Source: Candidatus Omnitrophota bacterium (GTDB lineage Bacteria; Omnitrophota; Gorgyraeia; Zapsychrales; Fredricksoniimonadaceae). From it: DNA of 57,072 bases. The stretch lies in assembly GCA_016201795.1 (NCBI GenBank), contig JACQCF010000022.1, positions 1-57,072 on the forward strand. The letters are read 5' to 3'. Shown here one piece after another: positions 5,490 through 51,323 of the stretch (position 1 is its first letter; every line of letters starts with the position of its first letter). The notes below the pieces were generated by a model that saw only the letters and a program-made list of their open reading frames with translations, searched no databases and was not told the DNA's origin. The position numbers and the translations under genes were made by a program.

Positions 5490-5570
5490 GTGTCATTGCG
5501 AAGGAGCGAAAGCGACTGAAGCAATCCTTTAAAAGATTGCTTCGCTCCCTACGGTCGCTCGCAATGACAC
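5490..5570. repeat. Palindromic MITE/RPE-like element, copy 1 (intergenic)
   Basis: 12-bp terminal inverted repeat gtgtcattgcga/tcgcaatgacac and inner gaagcaatc/gattgcttc stem. Confidence 0.9.
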
Positions 5571-14804: not shown

Positions 14805-15421
14805 AGATCAAAAATACAGAGTTTGTTATCTTTGACGTTGAGACCACCGGCTTATCGGCGCAGGACGGCGACCGCATCATTGAAATTGCCGCTATGAAAA
14901 TCAAAAACGGGAGGGTGGTGGACAAATTTTATTCGCTGGTCAACCCCCAACGTGCCCTGCCGGCGCAAGCCACCCGTGTGAATAATATTACTGAAGAGAT
15001 GATTGCTCCGGCGCCGACGGCGCAAGAGATTTTACCTCAGATGGTGTCTTTTATCTCTGGGGCTTGTGTAGCCGGGCACAATGTGCGTTTTGACCTCGGG
15101 TTTTTATGCTATGAACTGGCTTTGATGGGCCGCCGGCTCAATGATGGAACACCGGCGGTCGACACACTTAAGATGGCCAAGGATCTTTTGCCGTATTTAA
15201 GCAATTATAAACTCAGTTATTTGGCTCGTTCGCTGGGGGTGGCTGTCAGCAAAACTCATCGGGCCATGGCGGATGTGGAGTTGACGGTGCAGGTGCTGAT
15301 GCGCATGATTGAAATGGCCGCCGATCAAAATTTGGATGATGTCTCTAAGTTTCTTGCCCAATTTAGCGTCGATAAACCTTCCTTTAAATTAGTCTCTTCG
15401 GCACAGCCTTCGTTTTTCTAA
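14801..15421 (+). CDS. DnaQ-like DEDDh 3'-5' exonuclease
   Basis: FDVETTG, GHNVRFD, HRAMADV. Confidence 0.9.
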   Translation: MKIKNTEFVIFDVETTGLSAQDGDRIIEIAAMKIKNGRVVDKFYSLVNPQRALPAQATRVNNITEEMIAPAPTAQEILPQMVSFISGACVAGHNVRFDLGFLCYELALMGRRLNDGTPAVDTLKMAKDLLPYLSNYKLSYLARSLGVAVSKTHRAMADVELTVQVLMRMIEMAADQNLDDVSKFLAQFSVDKPSFKLVSSAQPSFF

Positions 15422-15428
15422 TGAGTAG

Positions 15429-15469
15429 CCCTCCCGCCATGGCGGGATCGGGCGAATTAATCCCGAGGG
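15429..15469. repeat. Nested palindromes in the intergenic gap
   Basis: Perfect 16-bp tcccgccatggcggga (15432-15447) interrupts the left arm of a ccctcggg/cccgaggg hairpin. Confidence 0.75.
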
Positions 15470-15510
15470 GTATGTTATAATAACATAGTAGTTTCCGAGG
15501 GATTACCATC

Positions 15511-16815
15511 ATGAATATTTTGACACATACCATATCTTTTAGCGACGATCCCATGAGTCTTTTGGATATTTTTAAAGACGAGCCACATGTTTTTTTCTTG
15601 GACAGCAGTTTGTCTGACACTTGCGACGGGCGTTTTTCGTACTTTGGCTTTGCGCCTTTTGAGACGATCAAGGCCCAAAATTTCGGCCAGCTAAGAAAAG
15701 CTCTGAAGCCTTACCAGGGGCTTAAAAGTCCGTTGTCTTTTCCCGCCGGAGCGGTGGGCTATATCAGCTATGACGGGGCTTTATGGTTCGGTCTCTACGA
15801 GGGCCTTTTGTGCGTGGATCATCACAAACAGACATTAACGATCACTTCAACCGGTTTGCCTTACCGCAACTTGCAACGTCAAAAACAAGCGGCCCGTCAG
15901 AAAATAGATTACATTCTCTATAAATTGCAAAATCGTCGTGAGGGCCTTGGCCGATTAAAACCTTTGCATCAAAAACTGGTCATTAAAAGTAACACCACTC
16001 TTGGGCAGTATGTGGCTTCTGTTAAGAGGGTTTTAAAGCATATTCACGACGGGGATATTTATCAGATCAATTTATCGCATCGGCTTGAAGCCGCCATCAG
16101 GAATTGGCGGCAGTATGTGCATCCGGCCGGGGTGTACCAGCACCTGCGCCGTCTGTCCCCATCGCCCTTGAGTGCTTATTTGGATGATGGACAAACGGTT
16201 ATTTTAAGTTCTTCGCCGGAGCGATTCTTAAAATTAAGGGACGGTGTGGCCCAGGTACGGCCGATGAAGGGGACCAGGCCCCGGGGCAAGGCACCGCGGG
16301 AAGATCAACGAAACAGGCAGGAGCTCATGGATAGCGCCAAAGAAAAGGCTGAACTTTTAATGGTCACTGATTTGGAGCGCAATGATTTAGGCCGGGTCTG
16401 TGGTTATGGCAGTGTCAGGGTCAAGGCCATGCGGACTATAGAAGAGTATACCACTGTGTTTCAGGCCACATCGACGGTGGAAGGCCTCTTGCGCAAAGAT
16501 TGCGATCAGTTTGATTTATTAGAAAGCACATTCCCCAGCGGCTCGGTCACCGGTTGTCCCAAGATAGAAGCCATGAAGATCATCCGCCGTCTGGAAAAAG
16601 CTCCCCGCGGTTTGTACACAGGTGCTTTAGGTTATATCAGCTTCGGCGGGGATATGGATTTTAATGTGCTCATACGCACGTTATTTTTAGAGAAAGATAA
16701 AATTTTTTTTTACGTCGGAAGCGGTATCGTGGCTGATTCGAATCCGCAGGATGAATATGAAGAGACCTTAATTAAGGCCGAAGCTATGATTAAGGCTCTT
16801 AAAATGTCATTGTGA
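15511..16815 (+). CDS. pabB: Aminodeoxychorismate synthase component I
   Basis: GDIYQINLS, SSSPERFL, PMKGTRPRG, ELLMVTDLERND, FPSGSVTGCPK; adjacent to a class IV aminotransferase (trpE-like alternative not excluded). Confidence 0.85.
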   Translation: MNILTHTISFSDDPMSLLDIFKDEPHVFFLDSSLSDTCDGRFSYFGFAPFETIKAQNFGQLRKALKPYQGLKSPLSFPAGAVGYISYDGALWFGLYEGLLCVDHHKQTLTITSTGLPYRNLQRQKQAARQKIDYILYKLQNRREGLGRLKPLHQKLVIKSNTTLGQYVASVKRVLKHIHDGDIYQINLSHRLEAAIRNWRQYVHPAGVYQHLRRLSPSPLSAYLDDGQTVILSSSPERFLKLRDGVAQVRPMKGTRPRGKAPREDQRNRQELMDSAKEKAELLMVTDLERNDLGRVCGYGSVRVKAMRTIEEYTTVFQATSTVEGLLRKDCDQFDLLESTFPSGSVTGCPKIEAMKIIRRLEKAPRGLYTGALGYISFGGDMDFNVLIRTLFLEKDKIFFYVGSGIVADSNPQDEYEETLIKAEAMIKALKMSL

Positions 16816-17585
16816 GTCTGCCTCCGACAGGGAATGTTTTTATGACGAAGCAATCTCCCGTTGTTTTTCTCGATGATCATTTTATTAAACCCGATGATGA
16901 TGTGCTGGCGTCGTTAACGCCGGGGCATCGCCGGCTGCACGGTGTTTTTGAGACCATGAAGTTCGAGGGGGGACGAATTCTTTTTCTTAAGGAGCATTTA
17001 ACGCGGCTTTTTAAGGGTCTTAAGGCGCTTCAACTCTCCCGTACCCCATCGGTGGCAAGAATATCTCGTATCATTCGTTTGAGTAATGGCCGCCACCGTT
17101 TTGTCCGCGCGCGCTTGCGTCTTATGGTTTGGCAAGAAAAGAAGTATATGCATTGGGCGCTGGTGACGAGGCCCTATGAGCTACCCAAGAAGAAAGTTTT
17201 CCGCGTCACTTTCATCAAAACTCAGAGGCTAGCCTCAGCACGTTTAGCTAATGTGAAATCTTTGGACTATGGACTTTTTGCCAGAGCTTTTCAGCAGGCT
17301 CAAAGACAAGGCTTTGATGAAGCCCTGCTGATCAATGCTCGAGGTTATATTTTTGAAGCCAGCCGCGCCAATATTTTCTGGGTTAAAAAAGGAAGGCTTT
17401 ACACACCGCCTTTATCCTCGGGATGTCTGAACGGCATTATGCGTCAGCAGGTGATGAAGTATGCCCGTCAATTAAAAATTCCTTTTGAGCAAAAGAATTT
17501 AACCATCAAGGCCTTTCAAGAAGCGGACACGGTTTTTTTAACCAATTCCCTCATCGGCATTAAACCTGTGAAATCCCGCATTTAG
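16812..17585 (+). CDS. pabC: Class IV aminotransferase, probable 4-amino-4-deoxychorismate lyase
   Basis: GVFETM, HLTRL, KSLDY, EASRANIF, L.GIMR, TNSL; start may be the downstream MTKQ ATG. Confidence 0.75.
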   Translation: MSLPPTGNVFMTKQSPVVFLDDHFIKPDDDVLASLTPGHRRLHGVFETMKFEGGRILFLKEHLTRLFKGLKALQLSRTPSVARISRIIRLSNGRHRFVRARLRLMVWQEKKYMHWALVTRPYELPKKKVFRVTFIKTQRLASARLANVKSLDYGLFARAFQQAQRQGFDEALLINARGYIFEASRANIFWVKKGRLYTPPLSSGCLNGIMRQQVMKYARQLKIPFEQKNLTIKAFQEADTVFLTNSLIGIKPVKSRI

Positions 17586-42700: not shown

Positions 42701-42816
42701 GTGTCATTGCGAACACAGACATAGTGTCATTACGAGGAACGAAGTGACGAAGTAATCTTTTTAACATATCAAAAGATTGCTTCGCTTAAAACGAACAGCG
42801 ACGCTCGCAATGACAC
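42701..42816. repeat. Palindromic MITE/RPE-like element, copy 2 (intergenic, duplicated left end)
   Basis: gtgtcattgcgaa (42701) and gtgtcattacgag (42724), inner gaagtaatc/gattgcttc, right end tcgcaatgacac. Confidence 0.88.
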
Positions 42817-47971: not shown

Positions 47972-48615
47972 TTTCCCCCGAAGAAAGGTTATTTGATGCC
48001 ATTCAGGAAGGCAAGAAATACCCTGCGGGGAAAAAAATAAATCCTGCGCAGGGCTTAAAGAGTTTTTTAGAGGGCTTGACCTTCAAGTGGCGGCCAAGTG
48101 ATTTGGCCGCGGGCGGGCAGAGGATCAATCTGGCAGCCGTCACTAAAATTCTTTTTATTATTTTGGTCGCGCTTATAATGCTGGTATTTTATAATGTTAC
48201 CAGACAGAGGCCGAGTTTATCAAAATTAACTGCTGGCGTTTCTACGGGTGGCGCTCAGTTGCCCGGCCCTAAACCCATCGAGGAGTTTAATCCGGTGACC
48301 GTTTATTTAGACGAGGCAAAAAAAAGAGATCTCTTTCATCCGATTCCGCCTCCTGCACCGCCTACGCCGGTGGTGTCCCTTAAGGAGAAAGTCAAGCCGG
48401 CGGCGACTGCGGTTGACCTTCGCGCGCTCATCAAAAATTTAACTTTGTCCGGTATCTATCAGGGTCAGGATGTTGAGGTGATGGTTGAGGATAAAACCAC
48501 CAAGAAAACATATTTTTTAAAACAGGGGGATGAAGTCAAGGGAATGAAAGTCAAGGCCATCCTCAAAGACAGAGTCATCCTGCAGTTAGGCACACAGGAA
48601 ATCGAGCTTTTATGA
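47968..48615 (+). CDS. GspC/PilP-like inner-membrane assembly protein
   Basis: Single TM, Pro-rich linker, RDLF, L.L.GI.....VMVED......FLKQGD.V.G..V..I. Confidence 0.65.
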   Translation: MISPEERLFDAIQEGKKYPAGKKINPAQGLKSFLEGLTFKWRPSDLAAGGQRINLAAVTKILFIILVALIMLVFYNVTRQRPSLSKLTAGVSTGGAQLPGPKPIEEFNPVTVYLDEAKKRDLFHPIPPPAPPTPVVSLKEKVKPAATAVDLRALIKNLTLSGIYQGQDVEVMVEDKTTKKTYFLKQGDEVKGMKVKAILKDRVILQLGTQEIELL

Positions 48616-50234
48616 AAAGCGTGTCAAATAAATCATGTGTCATTGCGAACGCAGTGAAGCAATCTTTTAAAAGATCGCCACGTCCCCTTCGGGGACTCGC
48701 GATGACGCTTATTTTTTGTCTGTTTTTCTTAAGTGGTCTTTCGTTTGGTTTTGCCCAACAGAAACCGCAGCCGATACCCATTCAGGAAGGCCTCACTCAG
48801 CGCATCGCTTTGGATTTGCGCGACATGGATATTATCGACGCGTTAAAATTTTTGGCTATGAAGGCCGGGATTAATATCATCGCCGCCAAAGACGTGTCCG
48901 GGCGGGTGTCGCTTTTCTTAAAAGGGGTGACCACACAGGATGCCCTGACCATCATCCTTCAGGCCAACAGCCTGGCCTATGAAATCCGCCGGGATGTGCT
49001 TTACGTGATGACCGAGAAAGAATACAAAGCGATTCATGGCAGTAATTTCAGCGACACGCGCAAAGTGAAGATTTTAAATTTAAAATATGCCAAACCCGAA
49101 GCGGTGTTTAAGGCGGTGGATACGCTCAAAAGCGACATCGGCAAAGTGATGGTGGATGAAGAATCCGGCGCCGTGATTTTAATGGACACCCCCGAGAGAA
49201 TAAGCGAAATGGAAAAAGCCGTTGCTGATTTAGACCAGGTAACCCTGACCAAGACATTTATTCTGCAGTACGCCAAGGCCAAAGACCTGGAACCTATTCT
49301 GGCCAAAAGGCTGGATGCCAAGAAAACCGGAACCGTGGCGGTGGATGAGCGCAGCGACCAGTTAATCGTGACCGCGTTCCCCGACCGCATGCAGGAAATC
49401 GAAGATCTCATCAGAAGCATGGACAAAAAGACCAAACAGGTCTTGATCGAAGCCCGCATTCTCAAGGTTATCCTCAATGATAATTTCAGCATGGGAGTGG
49501 ATTGGAACAGGGTCTGGACCGAAGCCAAGCTCAAAGGCCTGAATTTTACGGGAGTTTTCCCGCTGGCACCTGCGCCCACCAATTTTCTTAGAATCGGCGC
49601 GGGCAATGACGCGGCCACCGGCTTCAATTACTCTGCTGTTGTCCAGATACTGAAAGAATTCGGCGAGACACACAACCTTTCCTCGCCGAGCATTGCGGTT
49701 ATCAACGGCCAGGAGGCCAAGATGCTGGTGGGTACCACCCAGCCCTACGTGACGACCACGGTCGCCGCCGGCACCGTAACCGCCACCACCGCCGCCCAGG
49801 TGTCTTTTGTGGATGTGGGTGTGCAGTTGACCTTGACGCCGTTTATCAATAATGACGGTTATGTGACCATAAAAATCAAGCCGGAGATTTCCACTGTTGA
49901 CCAACCTTTTACCTATTCACTCGCCCCAGGGGTAAACAACACGGTTCCTATAGTGTCGAAAACCACGGCGGAGACGACCGTCATGATTAAAGACGGCAGG
50001 ACCGTTATTATCGGCGGTTTAAGAAAAGATGACAAAGTAAAGACGGTCAATAAAGTACCTGTGTTGGGAGATATTCCTTTTTTGGGCGTGGCGTTTAGAA
50101 ATACGGTCAATACCATGGAAAAAACGGAAGTGGTGGTTTTTATCACGCCGCATATCATCAGCGGTGGTGATGACAGTGGTGCAACGGTCGATGCGAGTCA
50201 GCTTAAGCCTAGAGGCATGAGATCCTATGAGTAA
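48612..50234 (+). CDS. Secretin (GspD/PilQ family)
   Basis: N0-like domain, two Secretin_N repeats, QVLIEARI, P......GQEA, DVGVQL.LTP, GGL, KVP.LGDIP.LG..F. Confidence 0.92.
   Translation: MKSVSNKSCVIANAVKQSFKRSPRPLRGLAMTLIFCLFFLSGLSFGFAQQKPQPIPIQEGLTQRIALDLRDMDIIDALKFLAMKAGINIIAAKDVSGRVSLFLKGVTTQDALTIILQANSLAYEIRRDVLYVMTEKEYKAIHGSNFSDTRKVKILNLKYAKPEAVFKAVDTLKSDIGKVMVDEESGAVILMDTPERISEMEKAVADLDQVTLTKTFILQYAKAKDLEPILAKRLDAKKTGTVAVDERSDQLIVTAFPDRMQEIEDLIRSMDKKTKQVLIEARILKVILNDNFSMGVDWNRVWTEAKLKGLNFTGVFPLAPAPTNFLRIGAGNDAATGFNYSAVVQILKEFGETHNLSSPSIAVINGQEAKMLVGTTQPYVTTTVAAGTVTATTAAQVSFVDVGVQLTLTPFINNDGYVTIKIKPEISTVDQPFTYSLAPGVNNTVPIVSKTTAETTVMIKDGRTVIIGGLRKDDKVKTVNKVPVLGDIPFLGVAFRNTVNTMEKTEVVVFITPHIISGGDDSGATVDASQLKPRGMRSYE
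48638..48706. repeat. Palindromic MITE/RPE-like element, copy 3, inside the secretin 5' end
   Basis: tgtcattgcga...gaagcaatc...gatcgccac...tcgcgatgac; read as VIANAVKQSFKRSPRPLRGLAMT. Confidence 0.85.
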
Positions 50235-50808
50235 GTTCTCCTTATGTCATTGCGAGCGATCCCGCCAAGGCGGGAGAGCGAAGCAATCTTTTAGACCTGA
50301 AAAGATTGCTTCGTCGTCGCTGAAAAACACTCCTTCTCGCAATGACACCAAACTATTATTTTTTTTAGTATTTTTTGTTGGCTGGGCAGCACTGGGGGCA
50401 GGCGCGGCTTTGGCCCAAGATGAGCAAAATTCTGATGACAAGTCTGAAATAGTTTCCTGTCAACTGCTGACGACCGAAAACGCCCAGTTAAAAGACACCA
50501 TTAACCAGCTTGGCCGCGAGCGCAACGGCCTGCAAAGCAGACTCAAAGAGCTTGCCGACACGCACTATAATCTGGGCGTCATTTTACAGGAGCAGTATAA
50601 GTTTGATGAAGCCCAGAAAGAGTATGAGAAAGTGCTGGAACTGCGCCCGGATGACGCGGATGCGCATTACAATCTGGCTTTGATTTTCGATACGGCCAAA
50701 AATGACCGGAACATGGCCCTGTACCACTATGAAAAATACCTGGAAATAAACCCGCGGGCCGCTGAAGCCCAGGGGGTAAGACAGTCTATCGCAAGGCTGA
50801 GCAAGTAG
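50227..50808 (+). CDS. Secreted coiled-coil / TPR protein
   Basis: Hydrophobic signal region, HYNLG......A...Y..VLEL.P.DA.AHYNLA TPR repeats. Confidence 0.85.
   Translation: MSKFSLCHCERSRQGGRAKQSFRPEKIASSSLKNTPSRNDTKLLFFLVFFVGWAALGAGAALAQDEQNSDDKSEIVSCQLLTTENAQLKDTINQLGRERNGLQSRLKELADTHYNLGVILQEQYKFDEAQKEYEKVLELRPDDADAHYNLALIFDTAKNDRNMALYHYEKYLEINPRAAEAQGVRQSIARLSK
50245..50347. repeat. Palindromic MITE/RPE-like element, copy 4, inside the TPR gene 5' end, with a nested 16-bp palindrome
   Basis: tgtcattgcga...tcgcaatgaca; nested tcccgccaaggcggga flanked by gagcga direct repeats; read as CHCERSRQGGRAKQS...SRND. Confidence 0.88.
50743..50800 (+). repeat. 58-bp direct repeat, copy 1 (3' end of the TPR gene)
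   Basis: 57/58 identical to 51266-51323. Confidence 0.92.
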
Positions 50809-50809
50809 A

Positions 50810-51052
50810 ATGGAAAAATATAAGTATACAGCTTATTTTGAAAATGAAGTTTTACGAAAAAGGCCGTATTTAAAAAAAGAATGGTGTGTTCTGGTTATTG
50901 AAAACCCTATTCGTATTGAAAGGCAGGATAATAACCGATATCGTTTTTGGGGCAAAGTTGAAGGGAGCGCAGATCGATTTCTTCGTGTTGTGACTCTTGA
51001 TGATAAAGTAACAATTCACAATGCTTTTTTAGACAGGGGGTTTAAACCATGA
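50810..51052 (+). CDS. Small putative toxin (BrnT/RelE-like fold) paired with DUF2283
   Basis: 80 aa, R.FWG....LRVV.L.D..TIHNAF.DR motif; ATGA overlap with the DUF2283 gene. Confidence 0.6.
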   Translation: MEKYKYTAYFENEVLRKRPYLKKEWCVLVIENPIRIERQDNNRYRFWGKVEGSADRFLRVVTLDDKVTIHNAFLDRGFKP

Positions 51053-51267
51053 AAATAAATTATTATTCAGATACAGATTCAATTTACATTGACCTTTCTT
51101 CCCGTCCAAGCGTTGAAACCCGAGAAATATCTTCAGGGGTAAACTTGGATTATGATAGCAATGGGGAAATAGTGGGGATTGATATTGACAATGCTAGCCG
51201 TAAAATGGATCTGAAGGATTTGTTTTTAAGCCACATCCCCGCGCAGGTGCATATTTTATCTGCATGA
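51049..51267 (+). CDS. DUF2283-family protein, putative antitoxin
   Basis: MKI.Y..DTDS.YI.LS.....ETREI..GV.LDYD..G..VGIDI..AS. Confidence 0.85.
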   Translation: MKINYYSDTDSIYIDLSSRPSVETREISSGVNLDYDSNGEIVGIDIDNASRKMDLKDLFLSHIPAQVHILSA

Positions 51268-51323
51268 AATAAACCCGCGGGCCGCTGAAGCCCAGGGGGT
51301 AAGACAGTCTATCGCAAGACTGA
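51266..51323 (+). repeat. 58-bp direct repeat, copy 2
   Basis: 57/58 identical to 50743-50800. Confidence 0.92.

Follow-up and report, generated by a model that had tools for sequence, protein, structure and literature searches.

In a 57,072-nucleotide (nt) stretch of a Candidatus Omnitrophota bacterium (GenBank assembly GCA_016201795.1, contig JACQCF010000022.1, positions 1–57,072; hereafter the window, meaning this whole stretch), we found short palindromic elements within the reading frames of two consecutive genes of a secretion operon, a secretin gene and a gene for a TPR protein. Both elements lie between the start codon and the hydrophobic core (h-region) of a signal peptide. The explanation that we favour, and regard as probable when taken as a whole, is that the elements are inverted pairs of CGTC/TGTC-tagged REP-like hairpins without an open reading frame (ORF) of their own, belonging to the SRM/NTS class when Ssn-associated. 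They would land just after stop codons, which in overlapping genes is already the start of the next gene, where a frame filter and the tolerance of the basic N-terminal part of the signal peptide (n-region) would decide which copies persist.

The 11-mer TGTCATTGCGA, with up to one mismatch, matches the window nine times across both strands, against a mean of 1.26 in shuffled sequence, and none of 100 shuffles gave nine or more. The matches pair up into four complete palindromic elements of 70–115 base pairs (bp), copies A–D (Table 1). An earlier reading of this DNA, made from its letters alone (the sequence-only reading), had described four such copies, which this count confirms; it had missed a fifth, a solo left unit that our nhmmer profile also failed to detect. 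The full copies share an outer inverted repeat of 11–13 nt, (G)TGTCATTGCGA / TCGCAATGACA(C), and an inner one, GAAGCAATC / GATTGCTTC, and also hold a variable loop and a one-sided variable segment, often with its own GC-rich hairpin. All four (4/4) are predicted to fold into a long hairpin, with RNA energies of −33 to −49 kcal/mol (z of −5.1 to −7.9 relative to shuffles) and DNA energies of −17 kcal/mol for copy C and −34 kcal/mol for copy D. An intrinsic terminator reading of these hairpins was rejected, since no T-run follows them. Each of the five copies occupies a junction between co-directional genes, the four full ones starting 4–22 nt after a stop codon.

By their names, homologous proteins assign the contig to Omnitrophota. 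The secretion operon encodes, in order, an ExeA-like ATPase (AAA_22), a GspC-like protein, the secretin and the TPR protein. Two of the full copies are intergenic and the other two lie between start codon and hydrophobic core in different frames, just as the sequence-only reading had stated. Stop codons are present in six of six frames of copy B. Copies C and D are each open in a single frame of the + strand, which is the frame in use. Copy C supplies residues 9–32 of the secretin (CVIANAVKQSFKRSPRPLRGLAMT, VIANAVKQS...GLAMT) and copy D residues about 6–41 of the TPR protein (CHCERSRQGGRAKQSFRPEKIASSSLKNTPSRND, CHCERS...SRND). The 24 and 35 element-encoded residues are basic, with a net charge of about +7 each, and stand directly ahead of intact h-regions. 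By inspection and hydropathy, both leaders have Sec-type features, with hydropathy maxima of 2.67 and 2.70 after the elements and predicted cleavage sites GFA/QQ and ALA/QD. Copy C is diverged, having a degenerate inner repeat and two changes in the terminal repeat; the two A-to-G changes in its right arm amount to G-U pairs in the sense RNA.

Table 1 Repeat copies and coding features of the window.
Feature	Position	Strand	Junction or location	Details
Copy A, full inverted dimer	5490–5570	.	Aspartate/ornithine carbamoyltransferase / dihydroorotase-like gene; intergenic, starts 11 nt past upstream stop	RNA −42 kcal/mol, z −7.5
Copy B, full element	42701–42816	.	YchF-type GTPase / peptide chain release factor; intergenic, starts 4 nt past upstream stop	Left end duplicated (42702 and 42725)
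Copy C	48637–48708	+	GspC-like / secretin; starts 22 nt past upstream stop	72 nt, 24 codons; RNA −33 kcal/mol, z −5.1
Copy D	50244–50348	+	Secretin / TPR gene; starts 10 nt past upstream stop	105 nt, 35 codons; RNA −48.7 kcal/mol, z −7.9
Fifth copy, solo left unit TGTCATTGTGAG...GACGAAGCAATCTCC	16804–16858	+	Chorismate-binding (pabB-like) / class IV aminotransferase (pabC-like)	
Secretin gene	48612–50234	+	Copies C and D at its two ends	STN, Secretin_N and Secretin domains
Secretin start codon	48612–48614	+	ATGA overlap with GspC-like stop	
Alternative in-frame secretin ATG	48702–48704	+	Within copy C right terminal repeat	MTLIF...
Secretin signal-peptide h/c region	48708–48755	+		LIFCLFFLSGLSFGFA, then QQ; by inspection
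TPR gene (MshN/PilF-like)	50227–50808	+		Intact to conserved C-terminus; gene call P0121, 193 aa, from 50227
TPR start codon	50227–50229	+	Inside ATGAGTAA; 8-nt overlap with secretin stop	
TPR-protein signal-peptide h/c region	50353–50415	+		LLFFLVFFVGWAALGAGAALA, then QD; by inspection

The sequence-only reading had suggested looking for orthologs with empty sites, and we found them in three syntenic operons (loci L001, L002 and L143), whose secretins are 72–74% identical to that of the window and which carry no element at either site. All three keep the ATGA overlap at the secretin start, and in each the TPR start reaches 8 nt into the secretin stop (ATGAGTAA in L001, ATGAATGA in L002 and ATGATTAA in L143). 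The overlaps of both upstream ATGs with the preceding stop, to which the sequence-only reading had drawn attention, are thus present in operons without the elements, which supports 48612 and 50227 as the probable ancestral starts; an ATGA or GTGA overlap at the secretin start is found in L001, L002, L143, L141, L156, L125 and L131. In protein alignments, the window has extra blocks of 24 and 35 residues exactly between residue about 6–8 and the hydrophobic core. Excision of 72 nt and 105 nt, each a multiple of three, leaves a secretin leader of MKSVSNKS joined to FIFCLFFLSGLSFGFAQQ and a TPR leader of MSKFSF joined to KLLFFLVFFVGWAALGAGAALAQD, and these element-free leaders are predicted to be ordinary signal peptides resembling those of the orthologs. 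The inserts are therefore absent from orthologs, keep the frame and contain no stop, as do the in-frame insertions of Rickettsia palindromic elements (RPE).

For the TPR gene, no ATG, GTG or TTG lies in frame between copy D and the h-region, and the near-cognates ATT and CTG occur only inside copy D. The earlier statement that no alternative ATG precedes the h-region thus holds, and for GTG and TTG as well. An exported TPR product must then include element-encoded residues, and from the sequence its translation has to pass through copy D, at least in part. The secretin, for which an alternative ATG at the right end of the element had been pointed out, indeed has one at 48702, and may start there. 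We also modelled insertion with a random family member (138 members) in random phase and orientation. The probability that such an insertion is frame-preserving and stop-free is P = 0.127, and about 0.016 for two copies, which points to selection for read-through. We infer that the long precursors are made and exported; for the TPR gene this would be firm in logic, and for the secretin a start at 48702 is still possible. The earlier claim that both copies are translated thus appears mostly correct for the TPR gene, and for the secretin it is plausible.

In the explanation that we favour, the repeats would settle a few bases past a stop codon between same-strand genes, like others of their class. 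Where operon genes overlap, this after-stop position would already be within the first codons of the next gene, and only frame-preserving, stop-free insertions would survive. Their survival would be possible only because the site is a signal-peptide n-region, where the h-region and the cleavage site are left undisturbed and the 24–35 extra basic residues would be removed together with the signal peptide. The inserted peptide would then be neutral cargo. The apparent preference for signal peptides probably results from the after-stop habit together with gene overlap and purifying selection, and signal peptides need not be targeted as such. The proposal that n-regions act as tolerant sinks for the element accordingly survives in part: basic inserts do precede intact h-regions with AxA-type sites, but the signal-peptide bias that it implied may be an after-stop bias. 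At the solo unit, the TGA stop (16813–16815) of the pabB-like gene arises through a C-to-T change within the head, and the internal ATG at 16842 with the first five codons (MTKQS...) begins the class IV aminotransferase gene; here the N-terminus of a cytoplasmic enzyme also takes up a few repeat codons. As the sequence-only reading proposed, the RNA hairpins could also tune translation or export timing.

Elements recur at the starts of exported and membrane proteins in related lineages. A full element and an extra right end lie between the secretin start (TAATG, with a 1-nt overlap with the upstream TAA) and the h-region in L142, and a full element lies between the secretin start (GTGA overlap) and the h-region in L131. 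The secretin of L125, 94% identical to that of L131, has a plain leader, MSEQRIALIFCLLISILCSLSYA; a target-site readout from this pair (L125 empty, L131 filled) was abandoned, as the whole leader region has been replaced and is unalignable. In L126/L127, the downstream TPR gene has a conserved MRKY start followed by an element and then the h-region, and the GspC-like gene has an element in the cytoplasmic tail before the membrane anchor. A left half-unit is kept in frame in L125, L131 and L134, within a linker of the mature secretin after the signal peptide (VIASPEGTxQ / VIARSPEGATKQ). These linker half-units are located at L125:~1060–1130, L131:4275–4331 and L134:164–213, and repeat-derived residues here persist beyond the cleaved leader.

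The secretins of L141 and L156 show recruitment of a half-element. In L141, the right half-unit makes up the h-region, MKFLFR-DCFAASLLAMT-LCGVGFAQQ, after a conserved ATGA start. The orthologous half-unit of L156 has diverged to RNCFAAFLLALTL, in which the internal ATG is gone while the ORF and the ATGA start are kept. Because L156 lost the internal ATG but kept the ORF, the repeat-derived codons must be translated in the L141/L156 lineage, and the half-element appears here to be evolving as coding sequence that has been turned into an h-region.

Tandem repeats of 7–8 nt were observed beside elements in several of these loci, namely GTGGCGA four times, GGTTAGCG-like repeats, TATCCCC four times and TATACGC three times (L142:8001–8260; L127:2425–2700; L131:4038–4080 and 15400–15600). 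Those of L142 and L127 are translated within the h/c region of the signal peptide, as IFYPLSPIPYPLTYA and YTLYAIRCPLSYA.

We then considered the family to which the element belongs. A pattern scan, limited to one genome per species and to the 10-nt ends, found at least 120 loci across many phyla. Among the matches listed are Alpha- and Gammaproteobacteria (many Bradyrhizobium, sphingomonads), Bacteroidota, Cyanobacteria, Chloroflexota, Patescibacteria, Planctomycetota, Nitrospirota and Deltaproteobacteria-type lineages. From phylum to phylum, the internal modules are conserved. In copies from other genomes, the position 5' of the element (directly ahead of GTCAT) holds C in 86 copies and T in 43 (together 129 of 137), and the one 3' of it holds G in 92 and A in 42 (together 134 of 137). 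All window copies carry the tag TGTC. The base directly after the inner GCAAT is C in 129 of 130 units, 62 of the 130 having a CCA tail, and the window copies read CCT or CTT. Each unit has a 5-bp stem, ATTGC/GCAAT, around an interior of 10–25 nt, sometimes with an inner GC hairpin, and the 8-bp pairing ATTGCGAG/CTCGCAAT is formed between the two units of one dimer. A census of coding context across phyla by simple ORF logic (153 elements) gave spurious long ORFs in high-GC genomes and was not used to judge signal-peptide bias.

These properties resemble those that Di Nocera, De Gregorio and Rocco (2013) reported for REP-like repeats with a CGTC tag (or TGTC or CCTC) at one end of each unit. 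Those repeats have a stem starting with AT, a short unpaired CCA tail at the untagged end and mostly inverted dimers, are found close behind ORF 3' ends between genes that are same-strand or convergent, with occasional intragenic copies, and show no association with a transposase (PMC3733652). Shared with them are the terminal tag, the AT-start stem, in part the C or CCA tail, inverted dimers with outward tags that end in ATGAC(G/A), the position after 3' ends between same-strand genes, occasional in-frame copies with an N-terminal excess, and the lack of a transposase. The window itself has four dimers and one solo unit, all at junctions of co-directional genes, the dimers close behind a stop codon and the solo unit spanning one. 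The element differs from CGTC families 1–4, as far as their intragenic table allows a judgement (VIPAKAGI, VIAGLDPAIH, VIPWLDHGI), in its stem ATTGC...GCAAT, and in a unit stem of 5 bp rather than one of 8–9 bp with a loop of 4–5 nt. Since the stem is unlike the families of that table and the unit stem has 5 bp, we provisionally file the element as a related but distinct stem family within the CGTC-tagged repeats. Omnitrophota, Patescibacteria, Chloroflexota, Planctomycetota, Nitrospirota and Cyanobacteria are phyla not in the list of Di Nocera et al. The comparison with Rickettsia made in the sequence-only reading is apt, as the CGTC-tagged superfamily includes RPE-4 and RPE-6 together with Neisseria dRS3 (PMC3733652).

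Searches of databases returned no name for the element. Rfam at gathering thresholds reported only three tRNAs over the whole window and no family for the element, at permissive thresholds eight repeat-bearing loci gave matches at chance level only, and searching the literature for the repeat and the peptides it encodes brought up primer coincidences only. A transposable element of the classical miniature inverted-repeat kind (MITE), derived by deletion from an insertion sequence with a DDE transposase, was rejected: there is no target-site duplication, and the sole ORF in full-length versions is a GIY-YIG nuclease.

In related genomes, the repeat stands on both sides of this small single-domain GIY-YIG gene, which is 95–96 aa long. 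At L145:1456–1827, between the ATP synthase alpha and gamma genes, a 96-aa GIY-YIG ORF is exactly in the loop of a full-length element, in the layout CGTCATTGCGA...GAAGCAATC, 7 nt, ATG...TGA, GATTGCTTCG...CTCGCAATGACG. The ORF lies between left and right units at L146:1392–1824 and adjoins units at L131:9011–9418, with the right unit directly past the stop in both, and a cyanobacterial locus (L107:2357–2761) has a frameshifted copy, 76% identical, beside an element. A homology search gave E < 1e-10 for 7981 among the best 8000 scored candidates; the best homologs are 70–85% identical and come from several phyla, many of them on contigs shorter than 2 kb, as is typical of repeats. The protein matches Pfam PF01541 and, weakly, TIGR01453, and NCBIfam has no family for it. 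Two other leads were set aside. The ten places of P0207 turned out to be one locus in many samples, with no diversity gained, and the 23S-rRNA-IVS-protein gene in L001 is not element cargo, as the repeat does not flank it.

The Ssn family comprises site-specific GIY-YIG single-strand DNA nucleases with NTS/SRM hairpin repeats, arranged as NTS-ssnA-NTS (Chenal et al. 2025, PMC11893778). The layout of L145 matches this arrangement, and by layout and domain the protein may be placed in the Ssn family. The units have the orientation of SRM/NTS repeats, with an HGTC head before the palindrome and a conserved C just after it. Further likenesses to Ssn/NTS, recognised here from sequence alone, are the AT-start palindrome, hundreds of dispersed copies, the flanked small GIY-YIG gene (L145, L146) and the clustering of repeats round certain genes. 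The short elements of the window are most plausibly such units in inverted pairs that lack an ORF, and an Ssn-type nuclease would spread them.

Several observations weigh against the explanation that we favour. No target-site duplication flanks the four full copies, and no defined target was seen there either. The SRM pattern HGTCWYN(0-2)YYVSBRHN(0-5)WNVSBRGN(0-2)RNCYNB, which did match the NTS consensus used as a positive control, finds nothing in the window and none of the 138 collected units, and the window has no GIY-YIG gene; in both respects the elements are unlike Ssn/NTS. A metagenome scan for strain-level relatives revealed nothing closer than 65% identity and no polymorphic empty allele. 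As to the starts, the secretin gene call of the collection (P0001, 510 aa) begins at the element's ATG at 48702, and Shine-Dalgarno signals, weak and inconsistent in this genome, do not discriminate between the two secretin starts. The very stable hairpins 18–25 nt past the upstream starts could hinder translation. Finally, a run of eight T residues at 50359–50366 would, with a ninth, put the ATG at 50342 in the TPR frame, to read MTPNYYFFLVFF....

The points on gene starts would be accounted for if the true starts lay downstream, the elements being untranslated intercistronic hairpins or short upstream ORFs, with the secretin made from 48702, where gene call P0001 places it, and the TPR protein from an unrecognised start or, given one extra T, from the homopolymer-corrected frame. 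Every dimer of the class ends in ATGAC(G/A), which provides an ATG facing outward; in several related secretins ...LAMT runs directly into the h-region; and an NTS-type dimer in L157 terminates with an ATG from which a good leader, MTCFAGATKKVIFFF, can be read. Di Nocera et al. also caution that repeats placed at ORF N-termini are in many cases extragenic (PMC3733652). However, the leader MTLIFCLFF... from 48702 has no basic n-region, unlike those of all close orthologs, and this ATG is paired in the outer stem of the predicted copy C fold, buried in a stem of −33 kcal/mol. The TPR gene offers no in-frame ATG, GTG or TTG to start from, the frame-preserving, stop-free state of both inserts would be needless if they were untranslated, and L156 has kept the ORF despite loss of its internal ATG. 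We consider downstream starts unlikely on this evidence.

Read-through of the inserts would also mean little if they were recent and harmful, or artefacts of assembly, with one or both genes impaired and the open frames a matter of luck. The same insertions are in no closely related genome, and the nearest relatives (74% identity) are empty. The TPR region is otherwise disturbed, by a 58-bp duplication and an inserted two-gene cassette, and repeats are a classic cause of metagenome misassembly. Against this, two independent open in-frame inserts are improbable by chance, copy C is visibly diverged and so not brand new, both genes continue intact, inserts aside, to their conserved ends, and like insertions persist in several other lineages. 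We judge such an account very unlikely.

The positions of copies C and D also allow them to be seen as a pair that brackets the secretin gene in an NTS-gene-NTS-like manner, serving Ssn-dependent control of recombination or transformation, or mRNA punctuation, with the coding position as a by-product. Dimers occupy both secretin junctions in the window (48637–50348) and in L142:8038–9816, both of the ATTGCGAG type, and in L157:1995–3723, of the NTS type. Over 19 non-redundant loci, repeats occupy 11 of 37 secretin junctions and 9 of 145 other junctions (odds ratio 6.4, p = 3e-4; p = 0.011 without the window and with one sister pair merged). The test is rough, since secretin homology was used to collect the loci, whose lineages are related, and this excess is a lead rather than a result. 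In the work of Chenal et al., NTS copies are reported to cluster round certain genes, and transformation to be affected when a gene is arranged as NTS-gene-NTS (PMC11893778). On the other hand, besides the choice of loci and the non-independence of lineages, many orthologs are without either copy, the operon keeps its synteny and shows no trace of gene mobility, and the window lacks an ssn gene. Bracketing in place of the favoured explanation seems very improbable to us. A wider proposal would have the leaders of exported and membrane proteins in gene-dense, overlapping-gene genomes act as a systematic refuge of Ssn-associated repeats, repeatedly recruited into signal peptides like the half-element of L141 and L156, in addition to a functional module bracketing the secretin in several Omnitrophota lineages and involving two repeat families. 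This we regard as quite unlikely; if true, it would link the targets of a single-strand nuclease to a gene of pilus/DNA-uptake-type machinery, analogous to NTS-gene-NTS in Neisseria.

Returning to the favoured explanation, its components are of kinds already known: CGTC/SRM hairpin repeats, RPE-like in-frame insertions and repeat-derived parts of signal peptides (PMC2229807). With the RPE insertions of Ogata et al. (2000), as far as they are recounted in PMC2229807, copies C and D share an in-frame, stop-free palindrome in a permissive part of a protein that has insert-free orthologs. They differ from them, within that account, in sequence family (compared with RPE-1), in phylum, and in site, which for the RPE insertions is a surface loop on the mature protein and here is a cleaved n-region. 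The YPAL/RU-2 MITE fusion YPO1552 of Yersinia (Delihas, PMC2229807) similarly has repeat codons in a predicted signal peptide, to which L141/L156 is the nearest parallel; in YPO1552, a hydrophobic repeat ORF creates a putative new gene, whereas here basic peptides are added to existing, conserved signal peptides.

The window thus presents a selfish hairpin repeat that would survive in essential-looking envelope genes by way of the disposable part of a signal peptide, with conserved starts and empty-site orthologs as controls, and in a sister lineage such a repeat appears to have become the signal peptide itself. For annotation, the starts of exported proteins in repeat-rich uncultured phyla may easily be miscalled at the repeat's terminal ATG. 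The CGTC/SRM class and its GIY-YIG partner would also extend to a new stem family, plentiful in many phyla, which the published search pattern misses.

Some minor features of the repeats and their surroundings were observed. The two left ends of copy B are 23 nt apart, and a Sphingobacterium locus (L075:2729–2790) has four tandem left ends at a spacing of 16–18 nt, which suggests that abortive or nested events have recurred at the tagged end. A GC-rich hairpin, GCCCTCCCGCCATGGCGGGATCG, at 15428–15450 lies just 3' of an ORF ending at 15421 and shows 91% complementarity with copy D's inner hairpin (50257–50279); elements may share their variable inner hairpins as modules. Downstream in the secretion region, the 3' end of the TPR gene is present twice, as a 58-bp direct repeat with 98% identity (50743–50800 and 51266–51323). 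The two repeat copies flank a cassette of two genes at 50810–51267, comprising an 80-aa ORF and a 72-aa DUF2283 protein and followed by a Fic-domain gene, which looks like an inserted toxin-antitoxin-like module.

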